A stretch of 64,000 bases of DNA from a virus (taxonomy: Duplodnaviria; Heunggongvirae; Uroviricota; Caudoviricetes), in the IMG/VR virus record IMGVR_UViG_3300042892_003674; one strand, given 5' to 3'. Numbering within the stretch: position 1 is the first letter of the stretch; the number at the start of each line of letters is the position of its first letter. The translations under genes and the position numbers were made by a program. Below are positions 744 through 45,550 of the stretch, piece by piece. The notes under the pieces are model-generated. The model had not been told where the DNA came from and searched no databases. It was given only the letters and a program-made list of their open reading frames with translations.

Positions 744-941
744 ATGAACGTAGGTGATATAGTAAAGATTAAAAGTATTCCAGGTTCAAGAGATATTATA
801 AAGTTTATTGGTAATAATGCAAAACATTTTATATATCTTGAGAATAGTTCATATCCATTCTTTGTATCTGAACTAGAACTTCACGAAGATCAAATAAAGC
901 TTAATAATAGAGAAATTAAACTAAATCAAATAGGAATATAA
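744..941 (+). CDS. Small hypothetical protein with C-terminal tag (NREIKLNQIGI)
   Basis: ORF, A-rich leader, tag motif. Confidence 0.75.
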   Translation: MNVGDIVKIKSIPGSRDIIKFIGNNAKHFIYLENSSYPFFVSELELHEDQIKLNNREIKLNQIGI

Positions 942-942
942 A

Positions 943-1305
943 ATGAATAAGGAAGAATTAAAAACAGTGATTGGTTCACTAATGTCAGACCTCAGAGGAA
1001 ACTGGGGCTATGATTATATTGAAAGAATGAGATTACTTATTGAACTATTAAATGAATTGAAATCATTAGATCCTGAACTCCAATCTGATTGTGATAACTT
1101 AATTAGTCATACAGAAGGTGAGATTGAAGATCCATATGATGGTAGAACTTTTAGAGGTGCATTTCTTTATGGATATGCAAGCGAAGAAGGTTGTACCAGA
1201 GAAGTACACACATATTTAGAAAGAGTTTTAACACACCCTGAATATAATAACATTAAAGTAAATATTTCTACAGAAAGAGACGAAAAACTAAATCAAATAC
1301 TATGA
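943..1305 (+). CDS. Hypothetical protein with C-terminal tag (ERDEKLNQIL)
   Basis: ORF, tag motif. Confidence 0.8.
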   Translation: MNKEELKTVIGSLMSDLRGNWGYDYIERMRLLIELLNELKSLDPELQSDCDNLISHTEGEIEDPYDGRTFRGAFLYGYASEEGCTREVHTYLERVLTHPEYNNIKVNISTERDEKLNQIL

Positions 1306-1448
1306 TAAAAAGTAAATGTTGTAATTCGACTGAACTAATCGAACCCGATTGGGATAAGGCAGAAGAAATGGGTAGTATGTGGAGAGCTTATGTTTGCTAT
1401 ATATGCAAAAAGTGTGGTAAAGTATGTGATGTACAAACCGATAAATAA
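1302..1448 (+). CDS. 48-aa Cys-rich putative Zn-binding protein (not in ORF track)
   Basis: ATGA overlap; MIKSKCC...YICKKCGKVC. Confidence 0.65.
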   Translation: MIKSKCCNSTELIEPDWDKAEEMGSMWRAYVCYICKKCGKVCDVQTDK

Positions 1449-1485
1449 AAATCAAATTAAGATTAGGTTATTCAATTTTTATACC

Positions 1486-1493
1486 TATCTTTG
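1486..1493 (+). promoter_or_regulatory. Bacteroidota -7 promoter element
   Basis: TATCTTTG upstream of 1511. Confidence 0.65.
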
Positions 1494-1510
1494 TAAAACA
1501 AAATCAAAAT

Positions 1511-1726
1511 ATGAGTAACTACTTTAAATCCGTACGTGACAACATCTTTATCTATATAGCTTATATGATAATAGTCGCTTTCCTATTATTTATCTCAATT
1601 GAAATGCTAAGACTAGCTAGACCTCTTAAAATTATAGGAATTCTAGGAACATTAGGTTCAATATGGGCAATCTTCAAATATCCAGACTTTCAAAAATACT
1701 TAACAACAAATAAAACAAAAAAATAA
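1511..1726 (+). CDS. Small membrane protein
   Basis: Two hydrophobic segments. Confidence 0.7.
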   Translation: MSNYFKSVRDNIFIYIAYMIIVAFLLFISIEMLRLARPLKIIGILGTLGSIWAIFKYPDFQKYLTTNKTKK

Positions 1727-4065: not shown

Positions 4066-4413
4066 ATGAGTAAAATAGAATTATACTTAGTTAAATCAAG
4101 TTCAGGTTCCTATGATGATTACAGAGAATCTAATGAAACTATTATCTATGCTACCTTAGAAGCAGCAGAGAAAAGAAAACAAGAAATTATTGATTCTCAT
4201 AAAGAAAAGCCATTCCCATTCGATTGGTGTACCGAACAGGAGTTTGATGAACTTAGATGTGAAGATGGTAAAGTAACTGATGAACAATGGACAATCTATG
4301 ACCAATGGGATTCAGATAACTATAATGCTAGAGAGTTTGGATCAGCGTGGGTACAACCAGTTGAGTTAGACCTACAAAGCTGGAGAGAAAGAAAACTAGA
4401 AAGTCTACTATAG
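4066..4413 (+). CDS. Hypothetical protein with C-terminal tag (WRERKLESLL)
   Basis: ORF, tag motif. Confidence 0.8.
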   Translation: MSKIELYLVKSSSGSYDDYRESNETIIYATLEAAEKRKQEIIDSHKEKPFPFDWCTEQEFDELRCEDGKVTDEQWTIYDQWDSDNYNAREFGSAWVQPVELDLQSWRERKLESLL

Positions 4414-5875: not shown

Positions 5876-6180
5876 TAATCAATAGTGTAAAAGAACTACA
5901 AGACATACTAATCTCTAGACCTGGTTACTTCGATAATATGTTAGAAGATAAGTTCAGTATAAAATTAGATGATCTTACTCCTGATAATATTAGTTGGGGT
6001 TCTATAGGTATGGATGACCTAGATAGTGTTGAAATGATTATGGACTTTGAAAAGTATTTCGATATAGAAATTCCAGATGATCTTATGAATAGTATTGAGG
6101 ATACAAATTTCTATGAGTTTTATAGTAAAGTATCTATAGCTAGAATTAGACAAGATAAATTAAACGAATTGGGAATATAG
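5872..6180 (+). CDS. Acyl-carrier-protein-like protein lacking the phosphopantetheine Ser, with C-terminal tag
   Basis: GMDDLDSVEMIMDFEKYFDIEIPDD versus ACP [25 protein letters not shown]. Confidence 0.75.
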   Translation: MIINSVKELQDILISRPGYFDNMLEDKFSIKLDDLTPDNISWGSIGMDDLDSVEMIMDFEKYFDIEIPDDLMNSIEDTNFYEFYSKVSIARIRQDKLNELGI

Positions 6181-6611
6181 TGGGTGTGGAAATAATTAAG
6201 GTAGGTGACTTAGTATCATCAAGAACATCATATCATCCACCAAAGATGATTTATGGTAACATTACAGAAATTAAAGATAGTAATGATGAAATACACGATC
6301 AATATGAAGTAATAACAGGAAACGGTGATAGAAACTCAAAACTAGAAGTCACAGTTAGTTATTTTGCGGAATTAGATGAAGATTATCATTATGATATAAC
6401 TGATGCAATAAAATACTTTGAAACTCCTTTAGTTAAAGTAGAAACTAATATGCACAATCTTGTATTTCATACAGATAAAAAAATAAAAGGTACATTTAAA
6501 CATTATAGAACTAAAATTACTAATATCAATAATAAAATAAACTTTCTAAAAAAACATAGAAATATAATAGAACAAAGAGAAGAGAAACTAGTTAGTTTAC
6601 TTGATAGATAA
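6180..6611 (+). CDS. Hypothetical protein with C-terminal tag (QREEKLVSLL)
   Basis: ORF, GTG start, tag motif. Confidence 0.7.
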   Translation: MGVEIIKVGDLVSSRTSYHPPKMIYGNITEIKDSNDEIHDQYEVITGNGDRNSKLEVTVSYFAELDEDYHYDITDAIKYFETPLVKVETNMHNLVFHTDKKIKGTFKHYRTKITNINNKINFLKKHRNIIEQREEKLVSLLDR

Positions 6612-6615
6612 AGTT

Positions 6616-6885
6616 ATGAAAGTGATGTGTGTTTATAATAGTTGTGAAGATTTAACTATTGGGAAAATATATGATGTTATACATTTGGAAAAATCTCGTA
6701 TATTACCTCGTATGTTACATTCTATACTTATTGTCAATGACAAAGATGAACAACAACTTTACTATATTGAAGATAATAAAAGAGTTTGGTTTGAAGATGC
6801 CACACCTTATATAAGAGATAATAAACTAAATGAATTAGAATTAGATAAATGGAGAGATAACCAAATAGAAAGTGTATTACAATGA
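6616..6885 (+). CDS. MKVxC small beta-barrel family protein with two tandem C-terminal tags
   Basis: MKVMCV..LTIGKIYDV..IRDNKLNEL-ELDKWRDNQIESVLQ. Confidence 0.8.
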   Translation: MKVMCVYNSCEDLTIGKIYDVIHLEKSRILPRMLHSILIVNDKDEQQLYYIEDNKRVWFEDATPYIRDNKLNELELDKWRDNQIESVLQ

Positions 6886-7106
6886 TAGTTAAATGTATAT
6901 CAACTAGTTCAACCTTTGATAGACCAGATGCTCTTCATTATAGATGGTTGACATTGGATAAGATTTATAATGTGATTGAATATAATAGTGATTTGACACA
7001 TTACGATATAAGAGATGATGGTGGAAATGTTTCATCATACCCTCAACATTGTTTTATGGATTTAATGTTGTGGAGGAATCAACAAATAGAAAGTGTATTA
7101 CAATGA
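6862..7106 (+). repeat. 24-bp exact direct repeat (6862-6885, 7083-7106) bracketing one gene
   Basis: caaatagaaagtgtattacaatga twice. Confidence 0.9.
6882..7106 (+). CDS. MKVxC family protein with C-terminal tag
   Basis: MIVKCI..LTLDKIYNV..WRNQQIESVLQ. Confidence 0.8.
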   Translation: MIVKCISTSSTFDRPDALHYRWLTLDKIYNVIEYNSDLTHYDIRDDGGNVSSYPQHCFMDLMLWRNQQIESVLQ

Positions 7107-7348
7107 GAGTGATGTGTATAAAGAAAATGATTTCTAGTGATGTTGTATTCTCTAGTATTAAAGTAGGTGACTGGATTGAAGTATATGAGAAATCTATATA
7201 CGATATGACTAATAAAGATCCCAATCATTCATCATGTTACTTTTATAGTCCATCACCTAGTAATGAGTATGCTTTTTATAAGAGTAACTTCATTACATTA
7301 GACCAGTGGAGAGAACAACAAATAGAAAAGTTATTGGATAATGAATAA
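7103..7348 (+). CDS. MKVxC family protein with C-terminal tag
   Basis: Start at ATGA overlap; MRVMCIKK..SNFITLDQWREQQIEKLL. Confidence 0.8.
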   Translation: MRVMCIKKMISSDVVFSSIKVGDWIEVYEKSIYDMTNKDPNHSSCYFYSPSPSNEYAFYKSNFITLDQWREQQIEKLLDNE

Positions 7349-7610
7349 GATAGTTTATACCGGACCAACCTGTTACTTAGGTCAATGGCATTTCACCACC
7401 TGTAAAACATATGATGTTCATCTGTATGAAAGAAGTGTGTATTATGTTATGGCAGATAATGATATACCTTATTATATAAATATGGGTAATTCACGTTCTA
7501 CATATATATCTCTGGAATCTGGAATTTTGGGTCTGTTCCCAGAGATAAATAGTAGTTTTATGACATTAGAACACTGGAGAGAGAATCAATTAAACAAGGT
7601 TGGAATATGA
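7341..7610 (+). CDS. MKVxC family protein with C-terminal tag
   Basis: FTTCKTYDV..FMTLEHWRENQLNKVGI. Confidence 0.8.
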   Translation: MNKIVYTGPTCYLGQWHFTTCKTYDVHLYERSVYYVMADNDIPYYINMGNSRSTYISLESGILGLFPEINSSFMTLEHWRENQLNKVGI

Positions 7611-7882
7611 AATATGTTAAATGTATTTATAAAGGCAGATTTTTAGGTAGTCCATATAGTGATTTAACCGCAGATAAGATCTATGAGGTTATAAATCATA
7701 ATTCAGATACTAAACCTCATAATAACCCCACCTATACAGGTAATATATGGAACGAATCAATTGATATTATTAACGACAAAAATGAATTGAGAAATTACTA
7801 TCTAATAGATACTGATGGTAGATGGTTTGAAGATGTCACATCCGAAATAAGAAATGATAAACTAAATGAATTAGGTATATGA
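7607..7882 (+). CDS. MKVxC family protein with C-terminal tag
   Basis: MKYVKCI..LTADKIYEV..IRNDKLNELGI. Confidence 0.8.
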   Translation: MKYVKCIYKGRFLGSPYSDLTADKIYEVINHNSDTKPHNNPTYTGNIWNESIDIINDKNELRNYYLIDTDGRWFEDVTSEIRNDKLNELGI

Positions 7883-7959
7883 AAGTTATATGTGTTAAGA
7901 AGAGTAATTTCATCACCTTACAACAATGGAGAGAGAATCAACTAAATAAAATATTATAA
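7879..7959 (+). CDS. 26-aa mini-member: family N-end fused directly to tag (not in ORF track)
   Basis: MKVICVKKSNFITLQQWRENQLNKIL, ATGA-coupled. Confidence 0.65.
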   Translation: MKVICVKKSNFITLQQWRENQLNKIL

Positions 7960-8107: not shown

Positions 8108-8135
8108 AATCCACTCGTTAAAGAGTGGGTTTTTT
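8108..8135 (+). terminator. Rho-independent terminator
   Basis: AATCCACTC-GTTAAA-GAGTGGGTT + T run. Confidence 0.8.
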
Positions 8136-8141
8136 AGTTTC

Positions 8142-8202
8142 ATATGGAACGAAACAATTGATATTTTTAAGAAATGATAAACTAAAACAACTGGGAATAT
8201 GA
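8142..8202 (+). pseudogene. Deleted, frameshifted relic of a 7607-like gene
   Basis: IWNETIDI followed out of frame by RNDKLKQLGI; both match 7607-7882. Confidence 0.6.
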
Positions 8203-8405
8203 AAGTGATGTGTATAGATCAATGTAATTTCAAAATGTGTGGATTTACTATTGAACCTGGTGACTGGTTAGAAGTTTATGATAATACCACAGATATAATT
8301 TCATATACATTTGAGAGAAATGGTAGTGAATGGTTTGTTGAGAAATATAAATTCATTACCGTTCAACAATTCAGACAGAAACAACTAGAAAAGATTGGTG
8401 TATAA
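8199..8405 (+). CDS. MKVxC family protein with C-terminal tag
   Basis: MKVMCI..FITVQQFRQKQLEKIGV. Confidence 0.8.
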   Translation: MKVMCIDQCNFKMCGFTIEPGDWLEVYDNTTDIISYTFERNGSEWFVEKYKFITVQQFRQKQLEKIGV

Positions 8406-9901: not shown

Positions 9902-10153
9902 ATGATAAAAAAAATTGTATGTATTTCTAAAGAACATAATGGTAGTATATATAATGGAGTTATTGTTGGCGAAATATACGATATAGTAGAATACCTACCT
10001 ACTGTTGCACCAAATGGTAGATTTAGAATAAAAGGTAAATTAGAAGGGATAGAATATTCTTCTGGTATAAAAACAATTGATCTTTTCCCAAAAGAACTAT
10101 TTATTACCTTACAACAATGGAGAGAACAACAATTAAATAAGATTGGAATATGA
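9902..10153 (+). CDS. MKVxC family protein with C-terminal tag
   Basis: KIVCI..VGEIYDI..FITLQQWREQQLNKIGI. Confidence 0.8.
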   Translation: MIKKIVCISKEHNGSIYNGVIVGEIYDIVEYLPTVAPNGRFRIKGKLEGIEYSSGIKTIDLFPKELFITLQQWREQQLNKIGI

Positions 10154-11063: not shown

Positions 11064-12113
11064 ATGAGAGTAAAATTACTTTTCCTATTATTTCCCTTCT
11101 TTTGTCTAGCACAAATCCCTACATACTATACATCTATTGATTTCTCACAGACTGGTAACAATCTAAAAAACCAGCTTACCACTTTAATAACAAATACACA
11201 CACTACCTTTTTACCATATACAGCTACAGGAACTACTGATACTTGGGATGCTTTATATCAAACTGATTTAAACCCAACAAATACTAACAATGTTCTTTTA
11301 ATTTACGGTTGGGATGATAATGATAATGATTTCACAAATGATTACTCTCGTGATAAAACTTTATCATGTCATACGTCTTCATGTTCTGGTCTATGGCAAA
11401 GAGAGCATGTTTTCCCTCGTTCATTAGGTACTCCAAATTTAGGTTTTGAATTCGCTGGTTCAGATGCTCACAATTTAAGATCTATCGATGCTGACAGGAA
11501 TGGTGCAAGAAGCAACCGCATGTTTGAAGACAGTTCAAGCTCTGTGATGTCTTTTATTACGACATTAGGTAATTGGTATCCTGGTGACGAATGGCGTGGT
11601 GATGTCGCACGTATGATAATGTATATGTATGTTCGCTATCCTACTCAATGTGCCGCAACAAGTGTCGGTGCAGGAAGTACTACCTTCTCTGTTGATATGC
11701 CAAATGTTTTTTTAAATTGGAATGTAGCAGACCCTGTTTCTCAATACGAACTAAATAGAAATAATATACTTCAAAATATTCAAGGCAATAGAAATCCCTT
11801 TATTGACAATCCCTATCTAGCAACTGTTATTTGGAATGGTCCAAATGCTCAAAATCCTTGGGGTTCATTATCATCAAGCAATCAAAGTATTGCTAACATA
11901 TCAATATATCCTACTATAACAAAAAACATAGTACACATAACAAATCCTAACAACCAAAATTATCAATACTCTATTTTTAATACATTAGGTCAATTAATCA
12001 AGACCAATACCACTACTGATATTATAGATATTTCAAACAATTCAAAAGGAATATACTTTATCAATTTACAATTAGAAAATCAATCAAAAAATTTTAAAGT
12101 TATTCTAAATTAA
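11064..12113 (+). CDS. Secreted endonuclease I-family nuclease with T9SS C-terminal sorting domain
   Basis: Signal peptide; WQREHVFPRS, DAHNL, RGDVAR, QGNRNPFIDNP; IYPT..NTLGQLI..KGIYFI..KVI. Confidence 0.9.
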   Translation: MRVKLLFLLFPFFCLAQIPTYYTSIDFSQTGNNLKNQLTTLITNTHTTFLPYTATGTTDTWDALYQTDLNPTNTNNVLLIYGWDDNDNDFTNDYSRDKTLSCHTSSCSGLWQREHVFPRSLGTPNLGFEFAGSDAHNLRSIDADRNGARSNRMFEDSSSSVMSFITTLGNWYPGDEWRGDVARMIMYMYVRYPTQCAATSVGAGSTTFSVDMPNVFLNWNVADPVSQYELNRNNILQNIQGNRNPFIDNPYLATVIWNGPNAQNPWGSLSSSNQSIANISIYPTITKNIVHITNPNNQNYQYSIFNTLGQLIKTNTTTDIIDISNNSKGIYFINLQLENQSKNFKVILN

Positions 12114-13056: not shown

Positions 13057-13428
13057 CTAACTTAAAATCTTCTCTAACTTTATCTGCCTAATCTTTTGCG
13101 GTAAATCCTCAATAATTTCTGATCCACTTACCGAAATACCATCATATAAACATGATATATGAACCTGATGATATTTCTCATTATAAACCGAAGAGTTCCA
13201 AGTCATTGATGATAACTTCTCAATAATTCTTATCACCTTTATACTATGATAATCATTTAAACCAGGCTTCTCCTTCATAAGTATATCAAATACATCCTGT
13301 GCCAAAAACTCAGCAATCTTAGTATAATCAAAATCCTGACCACTAGTAGTAAAACTAAATGACTTATCGTCGTTCTCTATAAGAACATCAACCAATTCTC
13401 CAAAACTATTTTCAAATATCATATCCAT
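13057..13428 (-). CDS. Hypothetical protein with C-terminal tag (IRQIKLEKILS)
   Basis: ORF, tag motif. Confidence 0.8.
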   Translation of the reverse strand: MDMIFENSFGELVDVLIENDDKSFSFTTSGQDFDYTKIAEFLAQDVFDILMKEKPGLNDYHSIKVIRIIEKLSSMTWNSSVYNEKYHQVHISCLYDGISVSGSEIIEDLPQKIRQIKLEKILS

Positions 13429-13598
13429 GAGATCTTATTTGTTAAATTATAATACCAATCACCATTAGTCATCCCATCAGGTTTAAATAACCTGAAAATC
13501 TTTCCCATACGATTCATTACAACCCTATGCTGTCTAGGTGTTCTATTAGGCTTCGTACTCTGTGTATGCAGAGAGTGTTTCACACTACTACTACTCAT
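13419..13598 (-). CDS. 59-aa micro-ORF with basic tag (NRMGKIFRLF)
   Basis: Manual translation; ATGA coupling. Confidence 0.55.
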   Translation of the reverse strand: MSSSSVKHSLHTQSTKPNRTPRQHRVVMNRMGKIFRLFKPDGMTNGDWYYNLTNKISWI

Positions 13599-13708
13599 AT
13601 CAATCCTTTCAAAATATGAATTATCTTCATCTTTCTTACAACACGTCTTCTCTCAATCCAACCAGGTAGATGAGAGCTCATATACTCTTCATACCACTTA
13701 TTATCCAT
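13595..13708 (-). CDS. 37-aa micro-ORF with basic tag (VRKMKIIHIL)
   Basis: MDNKWYEEYMSSHLPGWIERRRVVRKMKIIHILKGLI. Confidence 0.6.
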   Translation of the reverse strand: MDNKWYEEYMSSHLPGWIERRRVVRKMKIIHILKGLI

Positions 13709-13832
13709 TCAATATCCTTTTAATCTTTTTCATCCGTGAGTTCTTTCTTATCCACTTTAAATTCGTCGGTCTGTGAACTCTCTTAGACCATTCGGTATAA
13801 CCCATACCATAAGTGACTATCGGAAGCGCCAT
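13701..13832 (-). CDS. 43-aa micro-ORF with basic tag (SRMKKIKRIL)
   Basis: Manual translation; overlaps neighbours. Confidence 0.6.
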   Translation of the reverse strand: MALPIVTYGMGYTEWSKRVHRPTNLKWIRKNSRMKKIKRILNG

Positions 13833-13939
13833 GACAAAATCCTTTTAATCTTATACTTTCTTGTTAGAATAACAGGTAACCTAGCTTCTCGTAACTTATG
13901 CTTTTTCCACCACCTCAATTGAGTAAAATCATTATTCAT
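13817..13939 (-). CDS. 40-aa micro-ORF with basic tag (TRKYKIKRIL)
   Basis: Manual translation; ATGA coupling. Confidence 0.6.
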   Translation of the reverse strand: MNNDFTQLRWWKKHKLREARLPVILTRKYKIKRILSWRFR

Positions 13940-14163
13940 ATAAAAATCCTTTTAATCTTATTCTTTCTTATTAGTCTAGTCGGTAGTGTAACGTGAAGTT
14001 TAGCACTAGGGTTCAGAATACCTAAACCAACATTTACTGCACTGTAGAGAGTAAAAATCTTTTTAATCTTTCTCTTTCTAGCAATCTTACTACTATAGGT
14101 TCCTTTCACAGCATAGTACGAACCCGGTGAAATACCTAAACTACCTTTTTTTATCGGTTCCAT
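13936..14163 (-). CDS. Basic protein with two tag copies (ARKRKIKKIF, IRKNKIKRIF)
   Basis: ORF track and motif. Confidence 0.65.
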   Translation of the reverse strand: MEPIKKGSLGISPGSYYAVKGTYSSKIARKRKIKKIFTLYSAVNVGLGILNPSAKLHVTLPTRLIRKNKIKRIFI

Positions 14164-14558: not shown

Positions 14559-14723
14559 ATGGATGATAAAAATATTGATAAAGTATGTACTGTTTTGGCT
14601 ACTCGAAAGTGTATGACTTTATATGGTTTTTACAGAAGTATAAGTAAGAATATGGTAAGATATGTTTTAAGACAAGCTAAGATTGTTTCAATATTTAAAG
14701 AGAGATTTGATTATGAAGAGTAA
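14559..14723 (+). CDS. 54-aa micro-ORF with tag (LRQAKIVSIF)
   Basis: Manual translation MDDKNIDKVCTVL... Confidence 0.55.
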   Translation: MDDKNIDKVCTVLATRKCMTLYGFYRSISKNMVRYVLRQAKIVSIFKERFDYEE

Positions 14724-16441: not shown

Positions 16442-16540
16442 GATTGTGGTGGGACCAATCAGGGGTTCGGGGAGCCGTTGCCTTCGGCAAGTAGTTTGAG
16501 GGTCGTCGGAGTCGTAAACGTGCTGACGCACGTGGGGTTT
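16442..16540. other. GC-rich multi-hairpin non-coding island
   Basis: TGGT/ACCA, TTGCC/GGCAA and ACGTGC/GCACGT stems in an AT-rich genome. Confidence 0.6.
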
Positions 16541-16557
16541 TAAAATAAATTGTAGTG

Positions 16558-17955: not shown

Positions 17956-17961
17956 TAAGGT

Positions 17962-30361: not shown

Positions 30362-33112
30362 ATGTCAGAACTTCCAAATACAGATCAACAACCATCAATA
30401 GGAAAGATGGGAAGAATTTCCTTAGCATCAATAAATACATTGGCAGGACTATCTATGTTAAGTGTGGCAAAAGTAGATGGACTTGATATTGGTGGTAAAA
30501 CACTTACTGGTAATTTTAAAAGTACTTGGAACACAAATAAAGCTGGTGTCACTAACACCAACTCAATACAATTACCTCTTGTAAATAGTGGTACATATGA
30601 CTTTACCGTTGATTGGGGAGATGGTAATACAGATTATATTACTTCTTATAATCAAGCAGAGACGTTACACGAATATGGTTCAACAGGTACATACTCAATA
30701 GCTATAAGTGGTACGTGTAGTGGTTGGTCATTTGAGCAACAACCAGATACTAGTGAGGAAGGTGGTACTTCACCATCAAATCCTTTAACCGATAGACTTA
30801 AAATTTCTTCAATTGAAGAATGGGGTTGTCTTAGATTAGGTACAGAGAACTGTAATTTTGGAGATTGTAAAAATTTAACATTAAATTCAGTAGTTGATGT
30901 TCTTAATCTATCTGGAACTGTTGACTTATATGGATTATTTCATGGATGTACTTCGTTGACAACTATTAATAAACTTAACCAATGGAATTTATCTAATATT
31001 TCAAAGGCCGATTATATGTTTTTTGGTTCCGAGTTATTTAATCAAAATATTGGTGATTGGGATGTTTCTTCAGTAACTACTATGAAAGCTATGTTTAGTA
31101 CTAGAGGAAAAACTATAATGATTTTTAACAATGGTTCAGACACTTCTATTAATAGCTGGGATACATCATCAGTAACTGATATGTCTTATATGTTTAAACA
31201 ATCTAATTTTAATCAACCAATTGGAAATTGGAACACATCACAGGTTACAAATATGAGAGCTATGTTTCTATCTAATAACTTATTTAATCAACCAATTATT
31301 AGATCAGGTACTAGTTGGAATACTAGTGATGTTACTGATATGAGTGCAATGTTTTATAATGCATATGACTTTAATCAAGATATTAGTAATTGGATAACAA
31401 CAAATGTAACTGATATGAATCTTATGTTTGCCAATGCTTATGATTTTAATTATCCTCTTACATCTTATGATGATGGATTACTTAATATTTGGAAAGTTAG
31501 TAATGTAACCGATATGACTAGTATGTTTGCAGGAACTATTTTATTTAACCAACCCCTTAATAGTTGGGATGTTAAAAACGTACAAAGTATGTCTAATATG
31601 TTTGCATACTCACAAGCATTTGATCAACCGTTATCAAATTGGGATGTTACTAATGTAGTTAATATGAATTCTATGTTTGCTGGAACTATATTCAATCAGG
31701 ATATTAGTAATTGGCAACCATATAATGTATATTATATGTCCTTTATGTTTGGTCAATCAACATTTAATAATGGTGGATCGAGTTTAATCAGCAATTGGTT
31801 TCCAGTAGGTCCCCCTTATGCACCTCAACAATGGGTTATACAAGATATGTCTTTTATGTTTTATAATTGTTTATTTAATCAACCAATTCCAGATTGGAAT
31901 ACATCAAATGTAACTACTATGGAGGGAATGTTTGGTGGATCTGCATCAGTATTCGATCAAGATATTTCTAGTTGGGATGTTGGTAATGTTACTAACTTTT
32001 CACAATTTATGTCGGATGGTGTTCTTGGAAATACTAGAACAACACCATTTACACATTTAGATGCTATATATGGAACTGTAAGTGGATGGGCTAGTCGTAG
32101 TATGCAATCCGTAGTTGGTAAATATATTGACTTTGGTGGTGCTTATTATAATTCAACTGTCCAAGCAGGTAGAGATGAAATTACTGGTTATGGTTGGATT
32201 CCTCGAGATAATTTAGTATCAGTTGGTTATTCAATTGGTGGCCCAACTGGTTCATCAGTTACTTTCGCGAGTCTTGGTGTAGGTAAATTTCCTCAAGGTA
32301 TTATTACAGACAGTTTAGATAATGTTTATGTATATAATTCAGGTGGTTCTCCTAATACTATTATTAAGATAACACCGTTAGGAGCGACTAGTAATTTTAC
32401 GAATATAACAGTTGGATCAACCGGTAGAATGACCATAGATAGTTCGGATAATATTTATATACCATTAACTAATAATGATACAGTTGGTAAAATAAACCCT
32501 GCTGGTGTTTTAATAGCAACATATTCAACAGGAGACCAACCATATTCTTGTGCACTTGATAGTAATGGTAATCTATTTGTTGTAAATTCACAATCAAATA
32601 ATGTTACTAAAATAACACCAGGTGGTACATCGAGTGTATTTGCCAATGTTGGGACAAGTCCAACTGATGTTGTAATTGACGAATTAAATAATTTATATGT
32701 TATGAATAACATGAGTAGTAATATATCTAAAATCACACCAGGTGGTACATCAAGTATATTTGCCAATGTTGGTTCGGGTATATTTTCTTATAGTATTAAG
32801 AGGGATAGTATCGGTAATTTTTATGTTGTTGATTTCGATAATACGGCAAGTGTTGTCAAAAAAATCACACCAGGTGGTACAGTAAGTACCTTTGCAACCT
32901 TAGGTGCTTGGTGTCAATATATAGAGATAGATGTAAATGATAATTTATTCGTCAATGCAAGAAATAATAATTATATTTATAAAATAACACCAGGTGGTAC
33001 ATCGAGTGTTTATGCTACAACTGGAATGGGCCCTTATGCAATTGCAATTGATAGTTTGGGTAATAAATATACCGCAAACTATAATGATAATAATGTTACT
33101 AAAATATCATAG
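30362..33112 (+). CDS. PKD-like + DUF285/BspA-type repeats + NHL-like beta-propeller protein
   Basis: VDWGDG; many W-x-T/V-S-x-VT-x-M-x-x-MF and FNQ-x-I-x-x-W repeats; KITPGG repeats; start moved to 30362. Confidence 0.85.
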   Translation: MSELPNTDQQPSIGKMGRISLASINTLAGLSMLSVAKVDGLDIGGKTLTGNFKSTWNTNKAGVTNTNSIQLPLVNSGTYDFTVDWGDGNTDYITSYNQAETLHEYGSTGTYSIAISGTCSGWSFEQQPDTSEEGGTSPSNPLTDRLKISSIEEWGCLRLGTENCNFGDCKNLTLNSVVDVLNLSGTVDLYGLFHGCTSLTTINKLNQWNLSNISKADYMFFGSELFNQNIGDWDVSSVTTMKAMFSTRGKTIMIFNNGSDTSINSWDTSSVTDMSYMFKQSNFNQPIGNWNTSQVTNMRAMFLSNNLFNQPIIRSGTSWNTSDVTDMSAMFYNAYDFNQDISNWITTNVTDMNLMFANAYDFNYPLTSYDDGLLNIWKVSNVTDMTSMFAGTILFNQPLNSWDVKNVQSMSNMFAYSQAFDQPLSNWDVTNVVNMNSMFAGTIFNQDISNWQPYNVYYMSFMFGQSTFNNGGSSLISNWFPVGPPYAPQQWVIQDMSFMFYNCLFNQPIPDWNTSNVTTMEGMFGGSASVFDQDISSWDVGNVTNFSQFMSDGVLGNTRTTPFTHLDAIYGTVSGWASRSMQSVVGKYIDFGGAYYNSTVQAGRDEITGYGWIPRDNLVSVGYSIGGPTGSSVTFASLGVGKFPQGIITDSLDNVYVYNSGGSPNTIIKITPLGATSNFTNITVGSTGRMTIDSSDNIYIPLTNNDTVGKINPAGVLIATYSTGDQPYSCALDSNGNLFVVNSQSNNVTKITPGGTSSVFANVGTSPTDVVIDELNNLYVMNNMSSNISKITPGGTSSIFANVGSGIFSYSIKRDSIGNFYVVDFDNTASVVKKITPGGTVSTFATLGAWCQYIEIDVNDNLFVNARNNNYIYKITPGGTSSVYATTGMGPYAIAIDSLGNKYTANYNDNNVTKIS

Positions 33113-33352
33113 TATACCTAAGTATTTTAACTTTTTATTACGTTCTTCTGCTTTGTTTACTCGTTTGAAACTATCACTATAGAAACATTCAGTGTAACCT
33201 AAATCATTTTCAATAAGATAACTTTCTTCGGAAGAACCTTGTTCTATTATATTATAAATACCGACTTGATACTCTTTACCAGTAGTAAGAGTATCATAGT
33301 AGTCGTCGATATAAACAACGGTAAATGTTCCGTATGCTGATCTATTAGTCAT
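33107..33352 (-). CDS. MKVxC-like barrel protein with C-terminal tag (ERNKKLKYLGI)
   Basis: LTTGKEYQV..YLIENDLG. Confidence 0.75.
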   Translation of the reverse strand: MTNRSAYGTFTVVYIDDYYDTLTTGKEYQVGIYNIIEQGSSEESYLIENDLGYTECFYSDSFKRVNKAEERNKKLKYLGIL

Positions 33353-34047
33353 TATGAATTTATCATATAGTTTGATAAGTCTTGCCAAGTATTCTTGTAA
33401 GAATGTCTAATTTTAGACACCATTATCAATGTTCTAAGGTTTAAGTTATCACTTTCTTTATTCTCTGATAAGAATTTTAAAGCATCTTTCTTAACAGCTA
33501 ACTCATAGTCTGGTAAGATATTAGGTAAGATGTATTCCATTCTTTCAATTTTTTCATCTGGTGTCATACTCAAATCAACAGTTAAACTTCTTGATAAAAT
33601 AGCACCATCGATTTTAGATTTGTCTTTATTAGAGATAAAGATAATTCTTCCAGTGAAGTCAAATGATTGTGGATAAACATCTGCCTTATTCATACGAGCA
33701 GACCAAGTGATTGTTCTTTTTTCGTAAGAGTCAAGTGCTGATTTTAAGATGTTTAAAGCCACTTTATCTTCTAAAACAGAGTCACAGTCGTCAAAAACGA
33801 TTAGCTTTCCGTTATTATCATATAAAGTATTGTAAAGACCTCTTGCAGTTGAGTAACCTTTGATGAATAAGAAGTTATTTTCATCAACATCATTACCTTT
33901 AATAGTTGCTGTTACAGAGTGAGTTTTACCCAAACCTCCTTCACCGGTCACGATCAATGATGGTGTGATGTTGGTAACTACCATAGTAGTTAAGTCACTT
34001 AAAAAGTCGAATTTTTGATTTATTGTAAAGTCTGTAGTTTTTGTCAT
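33352..34047 (-). CDS. P-loop (AAA+) ATPase
   Basis: GEGGLGKT, IVFDDCD, IFISN, AILSR; TAnnTTTG at 34066-34073. Confidence 0.85.
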   Translation of the reverse strand: MTKTTDFTINQKFDFLSDLTTMVVTNITPSLIVTGEGGLGKTHSVTATIKGNDVDENNFLFIKGYSTARGLYNTLYDNNGKLIVFDDCDSVLEDKVALNILKSALDSYEKRTITWSARMNKADVYPQSFDFTGRIIFISNKDKSKIDGAILSRSLTVDLSMTPDEKIERMEYILPNILPDYELAVKKDALKFLSENKESDNLNLRTLIMVSKIRHSYKNTWQDLSNYMINS

Positions 34048-40214: not shown

Positions 40215-40574
40215 TTAAATAATGAATAAACTTTCTAATTTATATTCTCTGATTTCTGTTTTAAAAAGTGCGTTTAAATCCAACTCACCTAATATACAAA
40301 GGTCTCTATCATTTAATGACAAAGTATATGTAATACAATTATCAGAGTGTATTTTTATGAATAGTGGAGTTGCTAATCTAACAACTGCATCTAATCTATC
40401 ATTACCACTTTGTAGTTTGTGGTAGTTTACTATATTTTCATAGCAAGGTTGACTCTTACTAATAAAACCATCATAACATACTTTATATAAAGTGTTACCA
40501 TTAGGTTCTAACCCTAAGTGTTTAAGTATTGTGTAATCTAATGCTTTTGTCAATCCTTTCATTTCTCTAATCAT
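40215..40574 (-). CDS. Hypothetical protein with C-terminal tag (IREYKLESLF)
   Basis: ORF, tag. Confidence 0.75.
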   Translation of the reverse strand: MIREMKGLTKALDYTILKHLGLEPNGNTLYKVCYDGFISKSQPCYENIVNYHKLQSGNDRLDAVVRLATPLFIKIHSDNCITYTLSLNDRDLCILGELDLNALFKTEIREYKLESLFII

Positions 40575-40781: not shown

Positions 40782-41015
40782 TTATTTTAAATTTTCATTA
40801 AGTTTCATTTTTTCCAATTGTTCTTTAAACTCTTCAATAGTTCTAAAGGAACTTATAGGTGCGGCAGAAACAATTTTCTTATCATTTACAACCCAATGAT
40901 ATCCAGTATCATATATATCAGGATCATTTATAAAACGATAAACCCTTCCATAAGTAAAGTTGTGTAACTTCTTACTGGTACAAACCATTAAACCTTTAAT
41001 AACTCTTACTATCAT
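40782..41015 (-). CDS. MKVxC-like family protein
   Basis: MVCT..FTYGRVY..VVND..FRTIEE. Confidence 0.7.
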   Translation of the reverse strand: MIVRVIKGLMVCTSKKLHNFTYGRVYRFINDPDIYDTGYHWVVNDKKIVSAAPISSFRTIEEFKEQLEKMKLNENLK

Positions 41016-41350
41016 TTTAAAATTTCAATAAGTTTTTCGTTTCTAATATTTTGTAATGATAACATTTCTTTACCGAAGTCAGTCAGTTCATAAGTTATGT
41101 GCCAAGCGTCTTCAACATGATCTATTAAGTTATATTTTAATAGTTCTGAAGTTAGGTAGTAAGTACCACCGTGATTACGATTTAAAAAATAATCTTCTGT
41201 TTGAAAGGTAGTTTTATCATCATCTACACGAAAATCTTCTAATGATTCCCAACGAGTATCTCTATACTCTGCGTAACCTTCTTTCTGAATAGAAAGTAAG
41301 AGAGTATATGCGTCATCAGATAATTCAAATGTGTACGTAAATGTTTTCAT
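41012..41350 (-). CDS. Hypothetical protein with C-terminal tag (IRNEKLIEILK)
   Basis: YELTDFGK wing-like; TAnnTTTG at 41355-41362, 4 nt before ATG. Confidence 0.8.
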   Translation of the reverse strand: MKTFTYTFELSDDAYTLLLSIQKEGYAEYRDTRWESLEDFRVDDDKTTFQTEDYFLNRNHGGTYYLTSELLKYNLIDHVEDAWHITYELTDFGKEMLSLQNIRNEKLIEILK

Positions 41351-41418
41351 ATAGCAAATATAATAAAAATAATTTTAAATATATTAAATAATTTTACATA
41401 TATTTGCATATAATAATT

Positions 41419-41625
41419 ATGAAGAATATACTATACTTTTCTAGTTTATCACCAGTTGAAAGAGTTTCATTCATAGAAACATTACCTTTCTGTGAATTGG
41501 TAGTACTTAGAAATATATTAGAAGAAACTTATCAACAAAATGGTATGTGGGAAGCTTATGTAATTCAATGTGATAAAGAAATAGCAAAACGTAGAGAAGA
41601 TAAAATAAACGAAATATTAAAATGA
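41419..41625 (+). CDS. Hypothetical protein with C-terminal tag (RREDKINEILK)
   Basis: TATATTTG at 41399-41406; ATG 41419. Confidence 0.75.
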   Translation: MKNILYFSSLSPVERVSFIETLPFCELVVLRNILEETYQQNGMWEAYVIQCDKEIAKRREDKINEILK

Positions 41626-42326
41626 AACCAAAATTATATTATAGAGTAGATGAAAATGGTGTACCGTTCGATAACTTTTGTTCGGATGCAGCCATTGGTG
41701 CCAATGATGCAGGAATTGAATGTATTCCTTTCTCTGACATAAAACAAGTCAATATGAATCCTTACAACATCGTTGTAACATCTGTTGAGGAATCGCTAGA
41801 GTGGTTATGTCAAAACATTCAGGCAATTGATGATAAATGGGCCACTGACTTTAAGAAAAGAAAAGAAGTTATTACAACTATAGATGAAATAACTGAGTAT
41901 CCTTGTTTTATCAAACCTTACAAACATATTAAAGCATTTACTGGTATTGTTGTGAGTGATGTAAGAGAAGCTAAGTTATTCACACAAGATTTTAAAGATA
42001 GTGTTTCTTGTCAAGAGATTGTAGAATTTGAATCTGAGTACAGAGTTTATATTCATAAAGATAGAGGTATCTTAGGAGTTAAACATTACTTAGGTGATCC
42101 TTATATTGTACCTGATAAATCTTTTGTTGATGAGATTTATCAATTGTCGAAGTCTAACTTAGATCAAAATAGTTATACATTAGATATTGGTATAGATGAT
42201 AAGGGAACTAACTATTTGATTGAAATAAATGATGGTTGGTCAGTTGGTAATTATGGTTTGAACCCAAGTGATTACTTTAGTTTTGTTAAATCTAGATGGT
42301 TACAGATAACAGGAATTTTAAAATAA
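41622..42326 (+). CDS. ATP-grasp domain protein (R2K/DUF4343-like)
   Basis: FIKP..K.FTG, EYRVYI, YTLDIG, LIEINDGWSVG. Confidence 0.8.
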   Translation: MKPKLYYRVDENGVPFDNFCSDAAIGANDAGIECIPFSDIKQVNMNPYNIVVTSVEESLEWLCQNIQAIDDKWATDFKKRKEVITTIDEITEYPCFIKPYKHIKAFTGIVVSDVREAKLFTQDFKDSVSCQEIVEFESEYRVYIHKDRGILGVKHYLGDPYIVPDKSFVDEIYQLSKSNLDQNSYTLDIGIDDKGTNYLIEINDGWSVGNYGLNPSDYFSFVKSRWLQITGILK

Positions 42327-42331
42327 GAAAT

Positions 42332-42892
42332 ATGAGTAATAAGTTTAAGTTTATTTTATTCCATTTTTTTGGAATTAGTTTGGTTATTTTAGGTGCAATT
42401 TTATGTACTTATTTAGGTAAAATATGTCTTAAAGATGAGAACTCTGGTTTACCGGAGTTGTTTTTCTCCGGTTTATTCTTCTTTTTAATATGGTGTTTAA
42501 TAACAAATGGTCTTATAGGTGGTGCCATAATGGATGGTAAGAAAAGTATATTTAACTATCTTTTGAATTTTAAGAGATATAGAAATATAAAATGGATTTA
42601 TCATTCTGAGTTAGGTTATTTCCCATCAGTAATCGGTAAGAAAAAACTTTTATTATATAGACAGAATATATTTACGGTAGATGAACTATTGGATATAGAT
42701 ACTAGTGGTCGTAGTATAAAGTATATATCTGATACTGCTAAATCTCACTTAGATTGGCTTTATAAAAATCAATTAGATGATAATAAAAGAGCAGAACAAA
42801 TTAAGGCTAAGAATGATGAAATTAGAAAATGGGATGGATTTTTAGATGTTCCTTCACGAAGAGATAAAAAAATAGACGAACTACTTAAATAG
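42332..42892 (+). CDS. Membrane protein with C-terminal tag (RRDKKIDELLK)
   Basis: Two TM helices; tag. Confidence 0.75.
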   Translation: MSNKFKFILFHFFGISLVILGAILCTYLGKICLKDENSGLPELFFSGLFFFLIWCLITNGLIGGAIMDGKKSIFNYLLNFKRYRNIKWIYHSELGYFPSVIGKKKLLLYRQNIFTVDELLDIDTSGRSIKYISDTAKSHLDWLYKNQLDDNKRAEQIKAKNDEIRKWDGFLDVPSRRDKKIDELLK

Positions 42893-42908
42893 TTCGTCTA
42901 TTTTTTTT
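42866..42908. terminator. Bidirectional terminator
   Basis: AAAAAAATAGACGAACTA-CTTAAA-TAGTTCGTCTATTTTTTT. Confidence 0.8.
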
Positions 42909-43617
42909 ACCATTGAAATGAACCTGCACTAGTACTTTCTACTATACCTTCAAATAAATCAACCCACTCTTTAGTAAATTCAAACTCTTCTTTATTATCT
43001 AAAATAAAGTCAATCTTTAAATCCCTTCTTTGAACTCTATTTCTAGAAACTTGCTCCCAATCTCTACTTTCTAATTTAGCTCTTCTATGTTGTGCTCTTT
43101 CATATGAGTACATTTGAGCATCTTTATTTTCACTATATTGTTTATTTAAACAATGTAAAATAGCAGACTCACAATTTTCATAGAGAACTCCATTGGACCA
43201 ACTCACACCACAACAACTAAAATCTACATTTCCTATAAGATTTTTAAAGTTATCTGCATAGTTTTGTTGTTCTGATTTATCATTTGACATTGATTGTATT
43301 CTAGGTCTAATCAATTGAACTACTTTAGTTCCTTTAATCCAAGTACGTGGTTCTGATATAACGTGTATTGTTGAATAAAGATTAGTAATGTCAACCGATG
43401 TAAGTTTTTCAAAGTGATGGTATCCATTTTTTTCTAAAATATATTCTAGTTTTCTAAGTGATTGTGCACCACATAAGATGTCAACATCATTGATTGGTTG
43501 GTCTGCAATACTATCACGAATTGCACCACCAAAGATTCTCACCATTGAGTCCATATAAAGTTGATTATTATCGAACTCTAAATACTCATTTAGTCGATCA
43601 TTTATTTTTTGTATCAT
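42907..43617 (-). CDS. Nucleotidyltransferase-like protein (poly(A) polymerase/CCA head-like)
   Basis: FGGAIRD, NDVDI, VDFSC; near-terminal RRDLKIDFIL tag. Confidence 0.7.
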   Translation of the reverse strand: MIQKINDRLNEYLEFDNNQLYMDSMVRIFGGAIRDSIADQPINDVDILCGAQSLRKLEYILEKNGYHHFEKLTSVDITNLYSTIHVISEPRTWIKGTKVVQLIRPRIQSMSNDKSEQQNYADNFKNLIGNVDFSCCGVSWSNGVLYENCESAILHCLNKQYSENKDAQMYSYERAQHRRAKLESRDWEQVSRNRVQRRDLKIDFILDNKEEFEFTKEWVDLFEGIVESTSAGSFQW

Positions 43618-43686
43618 AAGGTATATTTTTAGTTATATAAAAACATGAATTAAAGGTTTTGGGAAAAATAATTTAATATATAGTTT

Positions 43687-45072
43687 ATGAGTGAAATTAT
43701 AAAATTTACAGATTATACAGAAATAAATGAGAATGTTATAATACCTGTTGTTGATGCGGTTATTAGTGATAGTGGTATTCTTAATACCAAAACTGCTACT
43801 GGACTTCCTTTAAAAGGAAGTGTAGAGTTAAATACAATACCTGTTTTTGACATAGAAACTGGAAAGAAGGTAATGGCAGTTTCAAGAACAGTAGGACAAG
43901 ATTCAAAAGCACAAAAAACAAAGAAAGTTGTTTCTGGTATAAAGGGTAATGATGGTAAATATTATCCTGGAGGATTAGACAAAAACGGTACTTTAGTTGG
44001 TGTGAATTTTGATGAAAATAATTACTTATTGACACTAGGTGCAACTGAATCGAGAACAAGAATTCCTATAGATCCAGAATCACAATCAAAATTAGATACA
44101 AAGTATCAAGATATAGAATTTTGGAATAAAGATGTTGATTATATTAAATGTGTTCCAAATATATCAACTGGTTGGGTAAATGTTAAAATTGATATGGAAG
44201 TAATTAAAAGAGTTAGAAGATATTCTGCTGGTTTAGTTGAAAAAGAGAAAGCTAGTGATAATAGTCACTTAACATTTGTAAGTAAGTTAAAAAGTTTAGA
44301 TAGAATAAGTAATAGAACTATAAAAATTGATAATATTACTAGACAGAAAATTCAAAAACAAATGTCTGCAATTATTTTATTACATTATATAAATGAGATT
44401 AAAACATTCTTTACACCATCTGCAGCAGGTTTATTATTTGAATCATTTATAGGTGGTCTAATTCCGTATGCTAAAGTTACTGAAGATAATGGTAAGGCAG
44501 ATATTACAGTTCCTACTGATGATGGAAAAATCGAATATCAAGTTAAGTTATATAGTACTGCAGCACAGTACATAGATATTGCAGTGAATAGATATGATGA
44601 TGATTCTATTCATCCTAATAGGGAAGTACCATTAGATTACTACTTAATATGTATAAAGAAGAGTGATGAAGTTATTATTTATGTTTTAAATAATGATCCA
44701 ACTTCTCCTGGATATTATAGTAATTTTAGAACATCTGGTAGAAATAGTAAGTCAAAAACTTTTTCTGTTAATGAATTAAATAATAGTAAGCTAGATTTTA
44801 GAACTGGTACAAAATTTATTTTATCACTTACTAATTTAGAGGAAAGAATTAAAAACTTAGGTGATAGTTTAAAAGGATGTTTAGATGAATTATATCGTTT
44901 ATTGAGTCAGTTTCAATATAATGTTGAAACAATAATAACTGGTGTAGATCAGGATGGTAAAAAAGTTAGTGAAACAGATTTTTCAAAACATTCTACTGAT
45001 GCCACCAATAATGTGAAATCTATGAGTGAGAAACTGGATGAACTTATTAAAGAGGTCAACATTAATAGATAA
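43687..45072 (+). CDS. Hypothetical protein with possible PD-(D/E)xK nuclease-like core
   Basis: GLLFESFIGGL..KADI..EYQVKLY; TAATATATA at 43674. Confidence 0.55.
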   Translation: MSEIIKFTDYTEINENVIIPVVDAVISDSGILNTKTATGLPLKGSVELNTIPVFDIETGKKVMAVSRTVGQDSKAQKTKKVVSGIKGNDGKYYPGGLDKNGTLVGVNFDENNYLLTLGATESRTRIPIDPESQSKLDTKYQDIEFWNKDVDYIKCVPNISTGWVNVKIDMEVIKRVRRYSAGLVEKEKASDNSHLTFVSKLKSLDRISNRTIKIDNITRQKIQKQMSAIILLHYINEIKTFFTPSAAGLLFESFIGGLIPYAKVTEDNGKADITVPTDDGKIEYQVKLYSTAAQYIDIAVNRYDDDSIHPNREVPLDYYLICIKKSDEVIIYVLNNDPTSPGYYSNFRTSGRNSKSKTFSVNELNNSKLDFRTGTKFILSLTNLEERIKNLGDSLKGCLDELYRLLSQFQYNVETIITGVDQDGKKVSETDFSKHSTDATNNVKSMSEKLDELIKEVNINR

Positions 45073-45550
45073 TAGAATTTATTTTATGTTCTCTCATATC
45101 AATAAAGTATTCATTAAACTCACCTTCTGTGATATAAATCTTTTGATTTTCTGCAAATACTACTAAGTTTTCATTTGGAAAAAATCCTTCTAACTCACAA
45201 TATAAATAAGTAATACTAGGATAAAACTTGGCATTTGACTTTACTTGAAAGAATTTAGTACAAACACAGAACTTTGTTGGATATGGTTCACCATTATATT
45301 TAAAGATAAATGCTTCTAACTTTCTTTTCTTTAGAACCTTTACACGATTGTATATAATTACTTTATTATGAATTTCCTTCTTGTGTTTATCAAACTCTTT
45401 TACAAGTGGTCCTCTCTCTAATCCTAACTTATCCGCAAACTTCTCAGGTGAGAAACGGATGAAACCATTTAGTAAATCAATATTATCCTCATCAACATCT
45501 AAGTTTTTAACTTTTTCAATCCATTGATTTAATTCTTGTAAACTATTCAT
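45062..45550 (-). CDS. Hypothetical protein with C-terminal tag (MREHKINSII)
   Basis: ORF, tag. Confidence 0.75.
   Translation of the reverse strand: MNSLQELNQWIEKVKNLDVDEDNIDLLNGFIRFSPEKFADKLGLERGPLVKEFDKHKKEIHNKVIIYNRVKVLKKRKLEAFIFKYNGEPYPTKFCVCTKFFQVKSNAKFYPSITYLYCELEGFFPNENLVVFAENQKIYITEGEFNEYFIDMREHKINSIIY

Follow-up and report, generated by a model that had tools for sequence, protein, structure and literature searches.

A shared C-terminal helix tag on small proteins of huge Bacteroidota phages, plausibly an address

Why should about one quarter of the small proteins encoded by one stretch of phage DNA end in a common 10-residue helix motif? The stretch, here called the window, is 64,000 nucleotides of the Caudoviricetes record IMGVR_UViG_3300042892_003674 in IMG/VR. 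The motif, here called the tag, was pointed out in an earlier note made from the sequence alone, which proposed that it is a docking or degradation address. The observation is confirmed and greatly extended to other huge phages, and the interpretation as an address is, on sequence comparison, plausible.

A C-terminal motif far above chance

Read from the translations, the tag opens with a hydrophobic or aromatic residue and R, continues with D/E/N, one free position, K/Q and L/I, and after two variable residues has L/I/V and G/L, usually followed by I or a polar residue and then the stop. The pattern phi-R-[DEN]-x-[KQR]-[LI]-x-x-[LIV]-[GL]-[I/polar], where phi is hydrophobic, closes 24 of the window's 109 open reading frames (ORFs) of at least 50 aa. 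The count was made on a non-overlapping ORF set with the regular expression (regex) R..[KQR][LI]..[LIVF] within the last 13 residues, and for 16 of these carriers the distance from R to the C-terminus is exactly 10 residues. Internal matches in the same proteins number 11 in 19,351 positions, which predicts 0.38 C-terminal matches, and 2000 shuffles of the proteins gave a mean of 0.20 carriers and a maximum of 3. At the N-termini of the window ORFs there are no regex matches. A tag at the C-terminus far above chance is confirmed, shuffling having been the check that the earlier note proposed.

Translation of all ORFs located every carrier that the note had listed, each ending in the same pattern, though its total of about 35 becomes about 30. 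For five of them the first in-frame start differs (6601 rather than 6616, 7049 rather than 7103, 14683 rather than 14713, 41404 rather than 41419 and 42296 rather than 42332); the other starts stand. Nine tagged micro-ORFs had been reckoned, of which five are convincing (7879-7959, 8125-8202, 13595-13708, 13701-13832 and 13817-13939). The motif placed near the end of 42907 does exist, but it is internal, 39 residues before the end of 42907-43617. One carrier, 29938-30312 on the minus strand, is outside the 109-ORF set, its 71-nt overlap having led the greedy non-overlap rule to drop it.

The tag is not peculiar to the window. The comparison drew on the published huge phages LR756502 (642 kb) and LR745206 (635 kb), on LR756501 (735 kb), on the IMG/VR genomes G005 (344 kb, GC 37%) and G006 (281 kb), and on a metagenomic contig, L001. 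After LR756502, G005, G006 and LR756501 had been rebuilt from 20-kb pieces, the regex gave 124 carriers among 999 ORFs in LR756502 (about 3 expected from the internal match rate), 80 among 505 in G005 and 39 among 413 in G006. LR756501, a huge phage of like base composition (GC 32%) with 532 small ORFs, has matches in only 2 of its 1042 ORFs. Carriers make up 9-16% of all ORFs in the related huge Bacteroidota phages. A 14-column tag profile, the scan of relatives suggested in the note, has many matches there: 47 on a 172-kb contig, 13-31 on four others and 11-12 in LR745206 and LR756502. It has none in LR756501 or P22, and one marginal match in Tenacibaculum phage PTm1. The exact coding pattern R-[DE]-x-K-L-N-E-L-G-I-stop occurs 18 times on 10 IMG/VR contigs, nearly always in carrier-dense stretches. 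Use of the tag by hosts was considered and rejected: in 596 Gb of bacterial and archaeal genomes the coding pattern was met once, on a GC-rich contig of a metagenome-assembled genome without other carriers. These clade-limited counts, with the near-absence from bacterial genomes and from LR756501, make the tag a property of one huge-phage clade, not of the hosts and not of AT-richness.

The clade consists of huge phages of Bacteroidota akin to LR756502 and LR745206, which are 'Mahaphage' genomes. The AAA ATPase at 57377-58468 of the window is 52-82% identical to proteins of IMG/VR contigs, 57.6% to its counterpart in LR745206 and 50% to that in LR756502. No close DNA-level relative of the window was found among deposited phages; contig L001, 75-95% identical to it, has 18 carriers among 51 ORFs in a mosaic gene order. 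Carriers in LR756502 are clustered at the ends of the record, which are probably contiguous (they are 30 of the 55 ORFs between 620 and 640 kb and 16 of the 55 in the first 20 kb), and are sparse at 520-580 kb, a block syntenic with the tail-fibre region at 46-64 kb of the window.

Is it the peptide that is conserved, or the nucleic acid beneath it? When the 24 tags are aligned on R, 533 of 990 same-residue pairs share a codon against 512 expected from the genome's codon usage. Five codons serve for leucine, and glycine, arginine and isoleucine use several each. Codon sharing as codon usage predicts means that selection is on the peptide and not on the DNA, which is what the earlier note had deduced from the differing codons. 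Its own check for conservation at the DNA level gave the same answer, synonymous sites being no more alike than codon usage predicts. A recombination site, promoter, terminator or other DNA or RNA element translated by chance could be glimpsed in two facts: the mosaic breakpoints between the window and L001 coincide with tag-coding ends, and one gene has two fused tags. In view of the codon result, such breakpoints are read as shuffling between neighbouring paralogs rather than as a DNA signal. Nor is a by-product of AT-rich composition borne out by the dearth of carriers in AT-rich LR756501, by the solitary marginal match in PTm1, likewise AT-rich, or by the 0.2 carriers in shuffled proteins. 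The codon test, the shuffles and LR756501 effectively refute both versions, whose probability is close to nil.

A further reading is a role in translation, with the nascent tag in the exit tunnel at termination promoting coupling to an overlapping downstream start. An ATGA overlap with the following gene is seen in 33% of carriers and 12% of other ORFs, and TGA is the stop codon of 46% and 20%, respectively. However, the distance from motif to stop ranges from 8 to more than 15 residues, 20% of carriers end operons or precede gaps of more than 60 nt, and the overlap bias is explained by the dense small-gene arrays in which carriers lie. Such a role is very improbable.

The tag and the proteins that carry it

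Modelling and sequence both suggest that the tag forms one helix, capped and about 12 residues long. In a logo drawn from 253 tags pooled from several genomes, constraint is strong at R0 (fixed by the search), K/R/Q3, L/I4, L/I7 and G/L8, and D/E/N1 is constrained too; positions -1 and -4 are mostly hydrophobic, and 2, 5 and 6 vary as protein bodies do. Upstream there is often T/S-x-x-E, a helix N-cap. The consensus phi-R-[DE]-x-K-[LI]-x-[EKQ]-[LI], closing with G-I-stop or L-polar, is identical across eight genomes, and every genome has two endings, L-G-I-stop and I-L with one to five polar residues after it. The distance from R to the end is 10 residues in 57% of carriers; the other 43% have 1-5 or more extra, mostly polar, residues. 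On a helical wheel phi-1, R0, K3, L4, L7 and L/G8 line up as a single stripe centred on R0 and K3, and the presence of these charges inside a hydrophobic stripe keeps the hydrophobic moment low. A membrane-targeting amphipathic helix of the MinD/FtsA type was rejected on this ground: the mean moment is 0.24 and the discrimination factor 0.57, compared to 1.6-1.7 for the MinD and FtsA peptides. The motif profile had no match among sequences of the Protein Data Bank.

The carriers and related ORFs of the window are as follows. Those called barrel-family have a predicted SH3-like barrel, considered below, and G008 is a further genome with orthologs.

744-941 (+): carrier, 65 aa; tag codons about 894-938, R 10 residues from the end, ends G-I
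943-1305 (+): carrier, 120 aa; tag 1261-1302, kept by orthologs in L001 and G008
4066-4413 (+): carrier, 115 aa; tag 4369-4410, kept by the G008 ortholog (L025 75-434)
5872-6180 (+): acyl carrier protein (ACP) with appended tag at 6133-6177; Pfam PP-binding 4.6e-5, PHROG ACP 1.2e-10
6180-6611 (+): carrier, 143 aa; tag 6561-6602, then 3 further residues
6601-6885 (+): barrel-family carrier, 94 aa, with tandem tags, R at 23 and 10 residues from the end
6882-7106 (+): barrel-family carrier, 74 aa; tag 7059-7100
7049-7348 (+): barrel-family carrier, true start probably near 7103; tag 7295-7336, then 3 residues
7341-7610 (+): barrel-family carrier, 89 aa; tag 7563-7607
7607-7882 (+): carrier, 91 aa; tag 7835-7879
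7879-7959 (+): micro-ORF, 26 aa, a barrel gene's first strand fused straight to a tag
8125-8202 (+): micro-ORF, 25 aa, with a full tag at its end
8199-8405 (+): barrel-family carrier, 68 aa; tag 8358-8402
9902-10153 (+): barrel-family carrier, 83 aa; tag 10106-10150
13057-13428 (-): carrier, 123 aa; tag 13063-13104
13595-14163 (-): four tiny ORFs, 37-75 aa, with a K/R-rich tail variant, R-x-x-K-I-K-R-I-hydrophobic
14683-15111 (+): carrier, 142 aa; tag 15055-15096, then 4 residues; post-tag tails are longer in orthologs
15713-16000 (-): carrier, 95 aa; weaker tag 15719-15760, with R in place of K/Q; the L001 ortholog is tagged too
29657-29941 (-): carrier, 94 aa; tag 29666-29707
29938-30312 (-): carrier, 124 aa, ending L-G-I; tag about 29941-29973
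33107-33388 (-): carrier, 93 aa; tag 33116-33157
40215-40574 (-): carrier, 119 aa; tag 40224-40265
41012-41350 (-): carrier, 112 aa; tag 41018-41059
41404-41625 (+): carrier, 73 aa, true start probably 41419; tag 41578-41619
41622-42326 (+): R2K ATP-grasp enzyme with a weak regex match at its end; Pfam R2K_2 2.7e-33, up to residue 219 of 234
42296-42892 (+): carrier, 198 aa, two predicted membrane spans; tag 42845-42886
42907-43617 (-): nucleotidyltransferase with an internal tag-like segment; Pfam PolyA_pol head 2.4e-5
45062-45550 (-): carrier, 162 aa; tag 45068-45109

How different are the bodies to which the tag is attached? With the tail removed, the 253 pooled carriers, mostly ORFans, fall by BLAST into 223 groups, of which 188 are singletons and one is a 24-member family, and few of the window carriers are linked. 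Alignment with database homologs nevertheless unites the window proteins starting at 6601, 6882, 7049, 7341, 8199 and 9902 as SH3-like barrel paralogs, to which BLAST adds 7607; the hallmark of the family is a conserved first strand plus the tail. An iterated profile assigns to it 56 (14%) of 407 carriers from eight genomes, and remote homology among further ORFans is possible. All 11 database homologs of 9902-10153 keep the tag. Its AlphaFold2 (AF2) model has an SH3-like barrel followed by a helix at residues 70-80, with a mean predicted local distance difference test (pLDDT) score of 84; Foldseek with this model gave weak SH3 matches (E about 0.2).

Beyond this family the tail follows recognisable domains. 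The ACP-like carrier of the earlier note is an ACP by both Pfam and PHROG. Its AF2 model has the ACP fold and an extra terminal helix at 89-99, and since solved ACPs align to residues about 11-88, the tag is beyond a complete domain. The tag is kept in all 21 aligned homologs, 20 of them unchanged at every core position and one with a G-to-A change. A riboflavin kinase of LR756502 (38957-39598, minus strand; found in that genome only, among five searched) matches Pfam Flavokinase (1.7e-23) over its N-terminal 128 residues, and its 86-residue extension ends in the tag. A BtpA-like protein and proteins with DUF7448 and DUF6011 are the other Pfam-recognised carriers in LR756502 and its IMG/VR relatives, and the Pfam and PHROG scans of carriers gave almost nothing besides these. 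Membrane spans are predicted in 14 of the 253, one being 42296-42892, the carrier that the note had called a membrane protein, and lengths range from 50 to 731 aa. These comparisons support a tag that is portable onto different bodies. The description of its carriers as unrelated suits the ACP, the riboflavin kinase, the BtpA-like and membrane proteins and the BLAST-unrelated ORFans, but not the seven window carriers that form one barrel family. It is true for the minority with known folds, while for the ORFan majority it is unproven and derives from lack of BLAST similarity.

The tag is also retained over long divergence. Of 102 ortholog-like pairs compared across genomes, 74 have a partner that satisfies the strict regex. 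In nearly all others a relaxed tag is recognisable, in which K3 is replaced or the tail is longer; there is one clear loss. Body identity of tag-keeping orthologs is about 30-50%. Where bodies are about 33% identical, identity is about 69% at the constrained tag positions and 32% at the free ones, values biased by the fact that both partners are regex-positive. ORF 6601-6885, which has two tandem tags where its L001 ortholog stops after the first, looks like two genes of the paralog array fused tail to tail by deletion or recombination, and the micro-ORF 7879-7959 is probably a collapsed gene remnant left by deletion. Genome-specific switching of the tag, which would be a sign of co-evolution with a reader, was not seen among the eight genomes.

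Retention of this sort might reflect structure alone. The tail could be the slowly evolving end of one or a few hugely diverged paralog families, capping its own domain or mediating dimerisation or oligomerisation, with no external reader. The barrel family, nearly always tailed, is what such an origin would give, and AF2 confidently sets the helix beside the barrel. Huge phages are rich in paralog expansions, of which the 24-member family is one, and R0 and K3 could form helix-helix salt bridges with D/E1 and E6. This accounts poorly for a tail placed after complete, unrelated ACP and riboflavin kinase domains, for the 188 of 253 tail-less carriers without a BLAST relative, and for the same R and K on proteins across the whole length range. 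A purely structural tail is thus unlikely, though a serious contender.

Candidate roles and candidate readers

The reading that we tentatively favour, with a confidence a little short of even, is that the tag would be a portable docking or address helix recognised by one conserved partner. The main argument for one site is that the charged R0 and K3 are conserved on bodies that share nothing else, which is hard to reconcile with packing on each protein's own fold; the same consensus in eight genomes fits one conserved reader. The conserved helix face would be bound by a single conserved site, encoded by phage or host. Thereby 9-16% of phage ORFs, mostly small accessory ORFans with a few enzymes and membrane proteins, would be handled as one class, whether for localisation, assembly, loading or turnover. 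If docking is right, the best guess, falling short of even, is a cytoplasmic hub or proteostasis machine (a protease or the phage Hsp70 system). Procapsid cargo loading is a distinctly lesser prospect, other functions are slightly less probable again, and pairing with a second class of labelled proteins, described below, is the least probable.

Several points weigh against docking. AF2 places the helix at pLDDT about 75-93 in both models, so packing on the body is possible in some carriers. Then 14% of carriers are one paralog family, and the independence of the others is BLAST dissimilarity only. Phylogenetic profiling for the presumed reader sought LR756502 proteins that recur in two further genomes with the tag but not in LR756501, a comparison of little power with its single negative genome; of the 44 candidates none is compelling. 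Those with an annotation comprise GrpE, UvdE, a 2H phosphoesterase, PRA-PH, an OmpH-like protein and a PD-(D/E)XK nuclease. GrpE occurs in four of the four genomes with the tag but not in LR756501, whereas all five encode Hsp70 and DnaJ. The genes for a full Hsp70 (DnaK), DnaJ and GrpE, the last adjoining DnaJ, are at the following positions.

LR756502: 483694-496075
G005: 118810-139878
G006: 76698-84180
LR745206: 461713-475432

The tag itself is a poor DnaK-type site owing to acidic residues in its core. The readers named by the earlier note (a host protease, RNA polymerase, a scaffold or an AAA ATPase) gained no specific support, and the AAA ATPase at 57377-58468 has relatives also in phages not known to carry the tag.

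A second label came to light at the other end of different proteins. The leader M-[KR]-x-[LIV]-[KRQ]-x-[FY] begins 86 ORFs of LR756502, 19 of G005 and 39 of G006, and in the window it heads a tandem array of about 150-aa paralogs (16025-27975, plus strand). LR756501 lacks it as it lacks the tag. No protein of LR756502, G005 or G006 has both leader and tag, against about 17 expected if they were independent, and the pooled sample has one against 18 expected; leader proteins include large paralog families, so these counts are not independent. The co-occurrence of the two labels in genomes and their exclusion on proteins fits two alternative addresses or mutually pairing partners. Potentially there is a two-label code, with the C-terminal tag on about 10-16% of proteins and the leader M-K-x-[LI]-K-x-[FY] on another 4-9%. 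Each label would have its own conserved phage receptor, which would send that class of proteins to a destination of its own (one becoming capsid cargo, for instance, and the other going to a factory or turnover machine in the cytoplasm), or else the labels would pair with each other. Such a code is a rather unlikely elaboration.

Might the destination be the capsid? Were the tail to bind the interior of the huge capsid or its scaffold, carriers would be packaged and injected with the DNA. The position at the C-terminus suits this, as do carriers that are numerous, small and mostly soluble. The P22 scaffolding protein ends in a helix that, like the tag, is at the extreme C-terminus, with basic residues spaced i, i+3 on the binding face (a predicted face for the tag). 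Comparison with the P22 sequence gives the spacing aromatic-R-x-x-K-(4 residues)-G-I, the tag having aromatic or phi at the first position; R293 and K296 of P22 are the coat-binding residues. The hydrophobic positions differ, however, the P22 element belongs to one protein and is a helix-turn-helix about 30 residues long, and the tag profile misses P22. The likeness may be chance; it keeps capsid loading alive as a sub-hypothesis. Cargo-loading peptides of encapsulins resemble the tag in being short, C-terminal, common to unrelated proteins, portable and bound at one site, which for the tag is presumed. They are Gly/Ser/Leu-rich and extended, with a consensus like LGIGSL, whereas the tag is a capped helix containing R/K, and its logo (R0, K3, L4, L7, G/L8) has no G-S-L core and does not match that consensus. 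Encapsulins also have few cargo proteins per genome, as against hundreds of carriers, membrane and metabolic proteins included. The capsid-targeting sequence of T4, with its L/I-x-E site for the prohead protease, is again a phage-specific address on unrelated proteins. It is N-terminal, cleaved and on fewer than 10 proteins, and in the present phages an N-terminal leader of that style is on a separate, non-overlapping protein set, so that the mutually exclusive leader is closer to it than the tag is. Further, an ACP, a riboflavin kinase and membrane-spanning proteins are poor cargo, 124 kinds of cargo would be unprecedented, and carriers in LR756502 are depleted at about 520-580 kb and concentrated in small-gene arrays at the genome ends. 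Capsid loading as the whole explanation is improbable.

A label for turnover has also to be considered, whether a C-terminal degron clearing early proteins or a cap against host C-terminal proteolysis. The known degrons ssrA and the MuA tail (a ClpX motif) are C-terminal labels through which a single machine deals with many proteins, as one may do through the tag. Carriers resemble early accessory genes in their tight small-ORF arrays at genome ends. The Bacteroidota -7 box (TAnnTTTG) is not enriched in the window and does not differ upstream of carriers, leader genes and other genes, and expression timing is therefore not inferable from it. But the ssrA and MuA degrons are disordered and need a free hydrophobic end, whereas the tag is a capped helix without likeness to LAA-type ends, and it tolerates trailing residues: 1-5 or more polar ones follow it in 43% of carriers, so that the free carboxyl end is not fixed. 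A role in stability is improbable.

For docking as such there are precedents in which unlike proteins meet one partner through a shared C-terminal peptide, namely the clamp-binding ends of T4 gp43, gp33 and gp55 and the acidic tails of T7 gp2.5 and gp4. Those tails are aromatic or acidic, are confined to a few DNA-handling proteins and have known readers; the tag is not acidic, has no aromatic pair and is on 9-16% of ORFs. Sliding-clamp motifs (QL[SD]LF, the PIP box Qxx[LIM]xx[FY][FY] and the T4 type) were considered and rejected, aromatics being rare at +4 to +9 and Q at +3 occurring in 9% of carriers. In kind, then, the tag is a shared terminal recognition peptide, while it fails the sequence or physical criteria of the known systems where these are testable. 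No description of the motif was found in the literature, including papers on these phage genomes, which agrees with the earlier note's view that it is not a described system.

Its scale (9-16% of ORFs), the exclusive paired leader and the ease of checking are the notable features; the published LR756502 and LR745206 carry the tag, which puts the claim within anyone's reach. Most genes of huge phages are unannotatable ORFans. If at least a tenth of these share one label, hundreds would come together in one functional class, with the peptide as one experimental handle for the docking partners of these dark proteins. Targeting signals on a proteome-wide scale are typical of cells that have compartments or sorting machines. 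One, possibly two, such signals in phages with genomes of 280-640 kb would have a bearing on the way these viruses organise infection. Being short, portable and apparently phage-specific, the tag is also a possible tool.

Neighbouring genes

The R2K ATP-grasp enzyme at 41622-42326 is located between tag carriers. Its terminal regex match is probably due to chance, the G008 homolog being without the motif. R2K-clade ATP-grasp enzymes are proposed protein or peptide ligases; a function in modifying the tag was rejected, being suggested by location with nothing else in support.

The cluster of tiny basic ORFs at 13595-14163 is conserved in L001 (15141-15385) and in the genome G004 (L016 2130-2461). 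Their ending, R-x-x-K-I-K-[RK]-I-hydrophobic, may be a K/R-rich cousin of the tag that forms a separate class.

At 11064-12113 (plus strand) an endonuclease I domain is joined to a C-terminal sorting domain for type IX secretion (Pfam 1.5e-44 and 7.4e-9). The nuclease is apparently exported by way of the host type IX secretion system, and the sorting domain fits a Bacteroidota host. This domain (Por_Secre_tail, a beta-sandwich of about 70-100 aa) was rejected as an identity for the tag, occurring on this endonuclease only and not on carriers.

The tail-fibre region encodes a collagen-like tail-fibre protein of 1814 aa (48514-53958, minus strand), which has many PHROG tail-fibre matches, the best at 4e-117; GC over this stretch is 40%, against about 30% elsewhere in the window. 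Adjoining it are unannotated proteins at 46068-46628, 55967-57058, 57039-57380 and 59124-63623 (minus strand), one of them of 1499 aa. They have no homolog in LR756501 and are kept in LR756502, G005 and G006, a pattern that marks them as clade-specific core genes within a conserved block.

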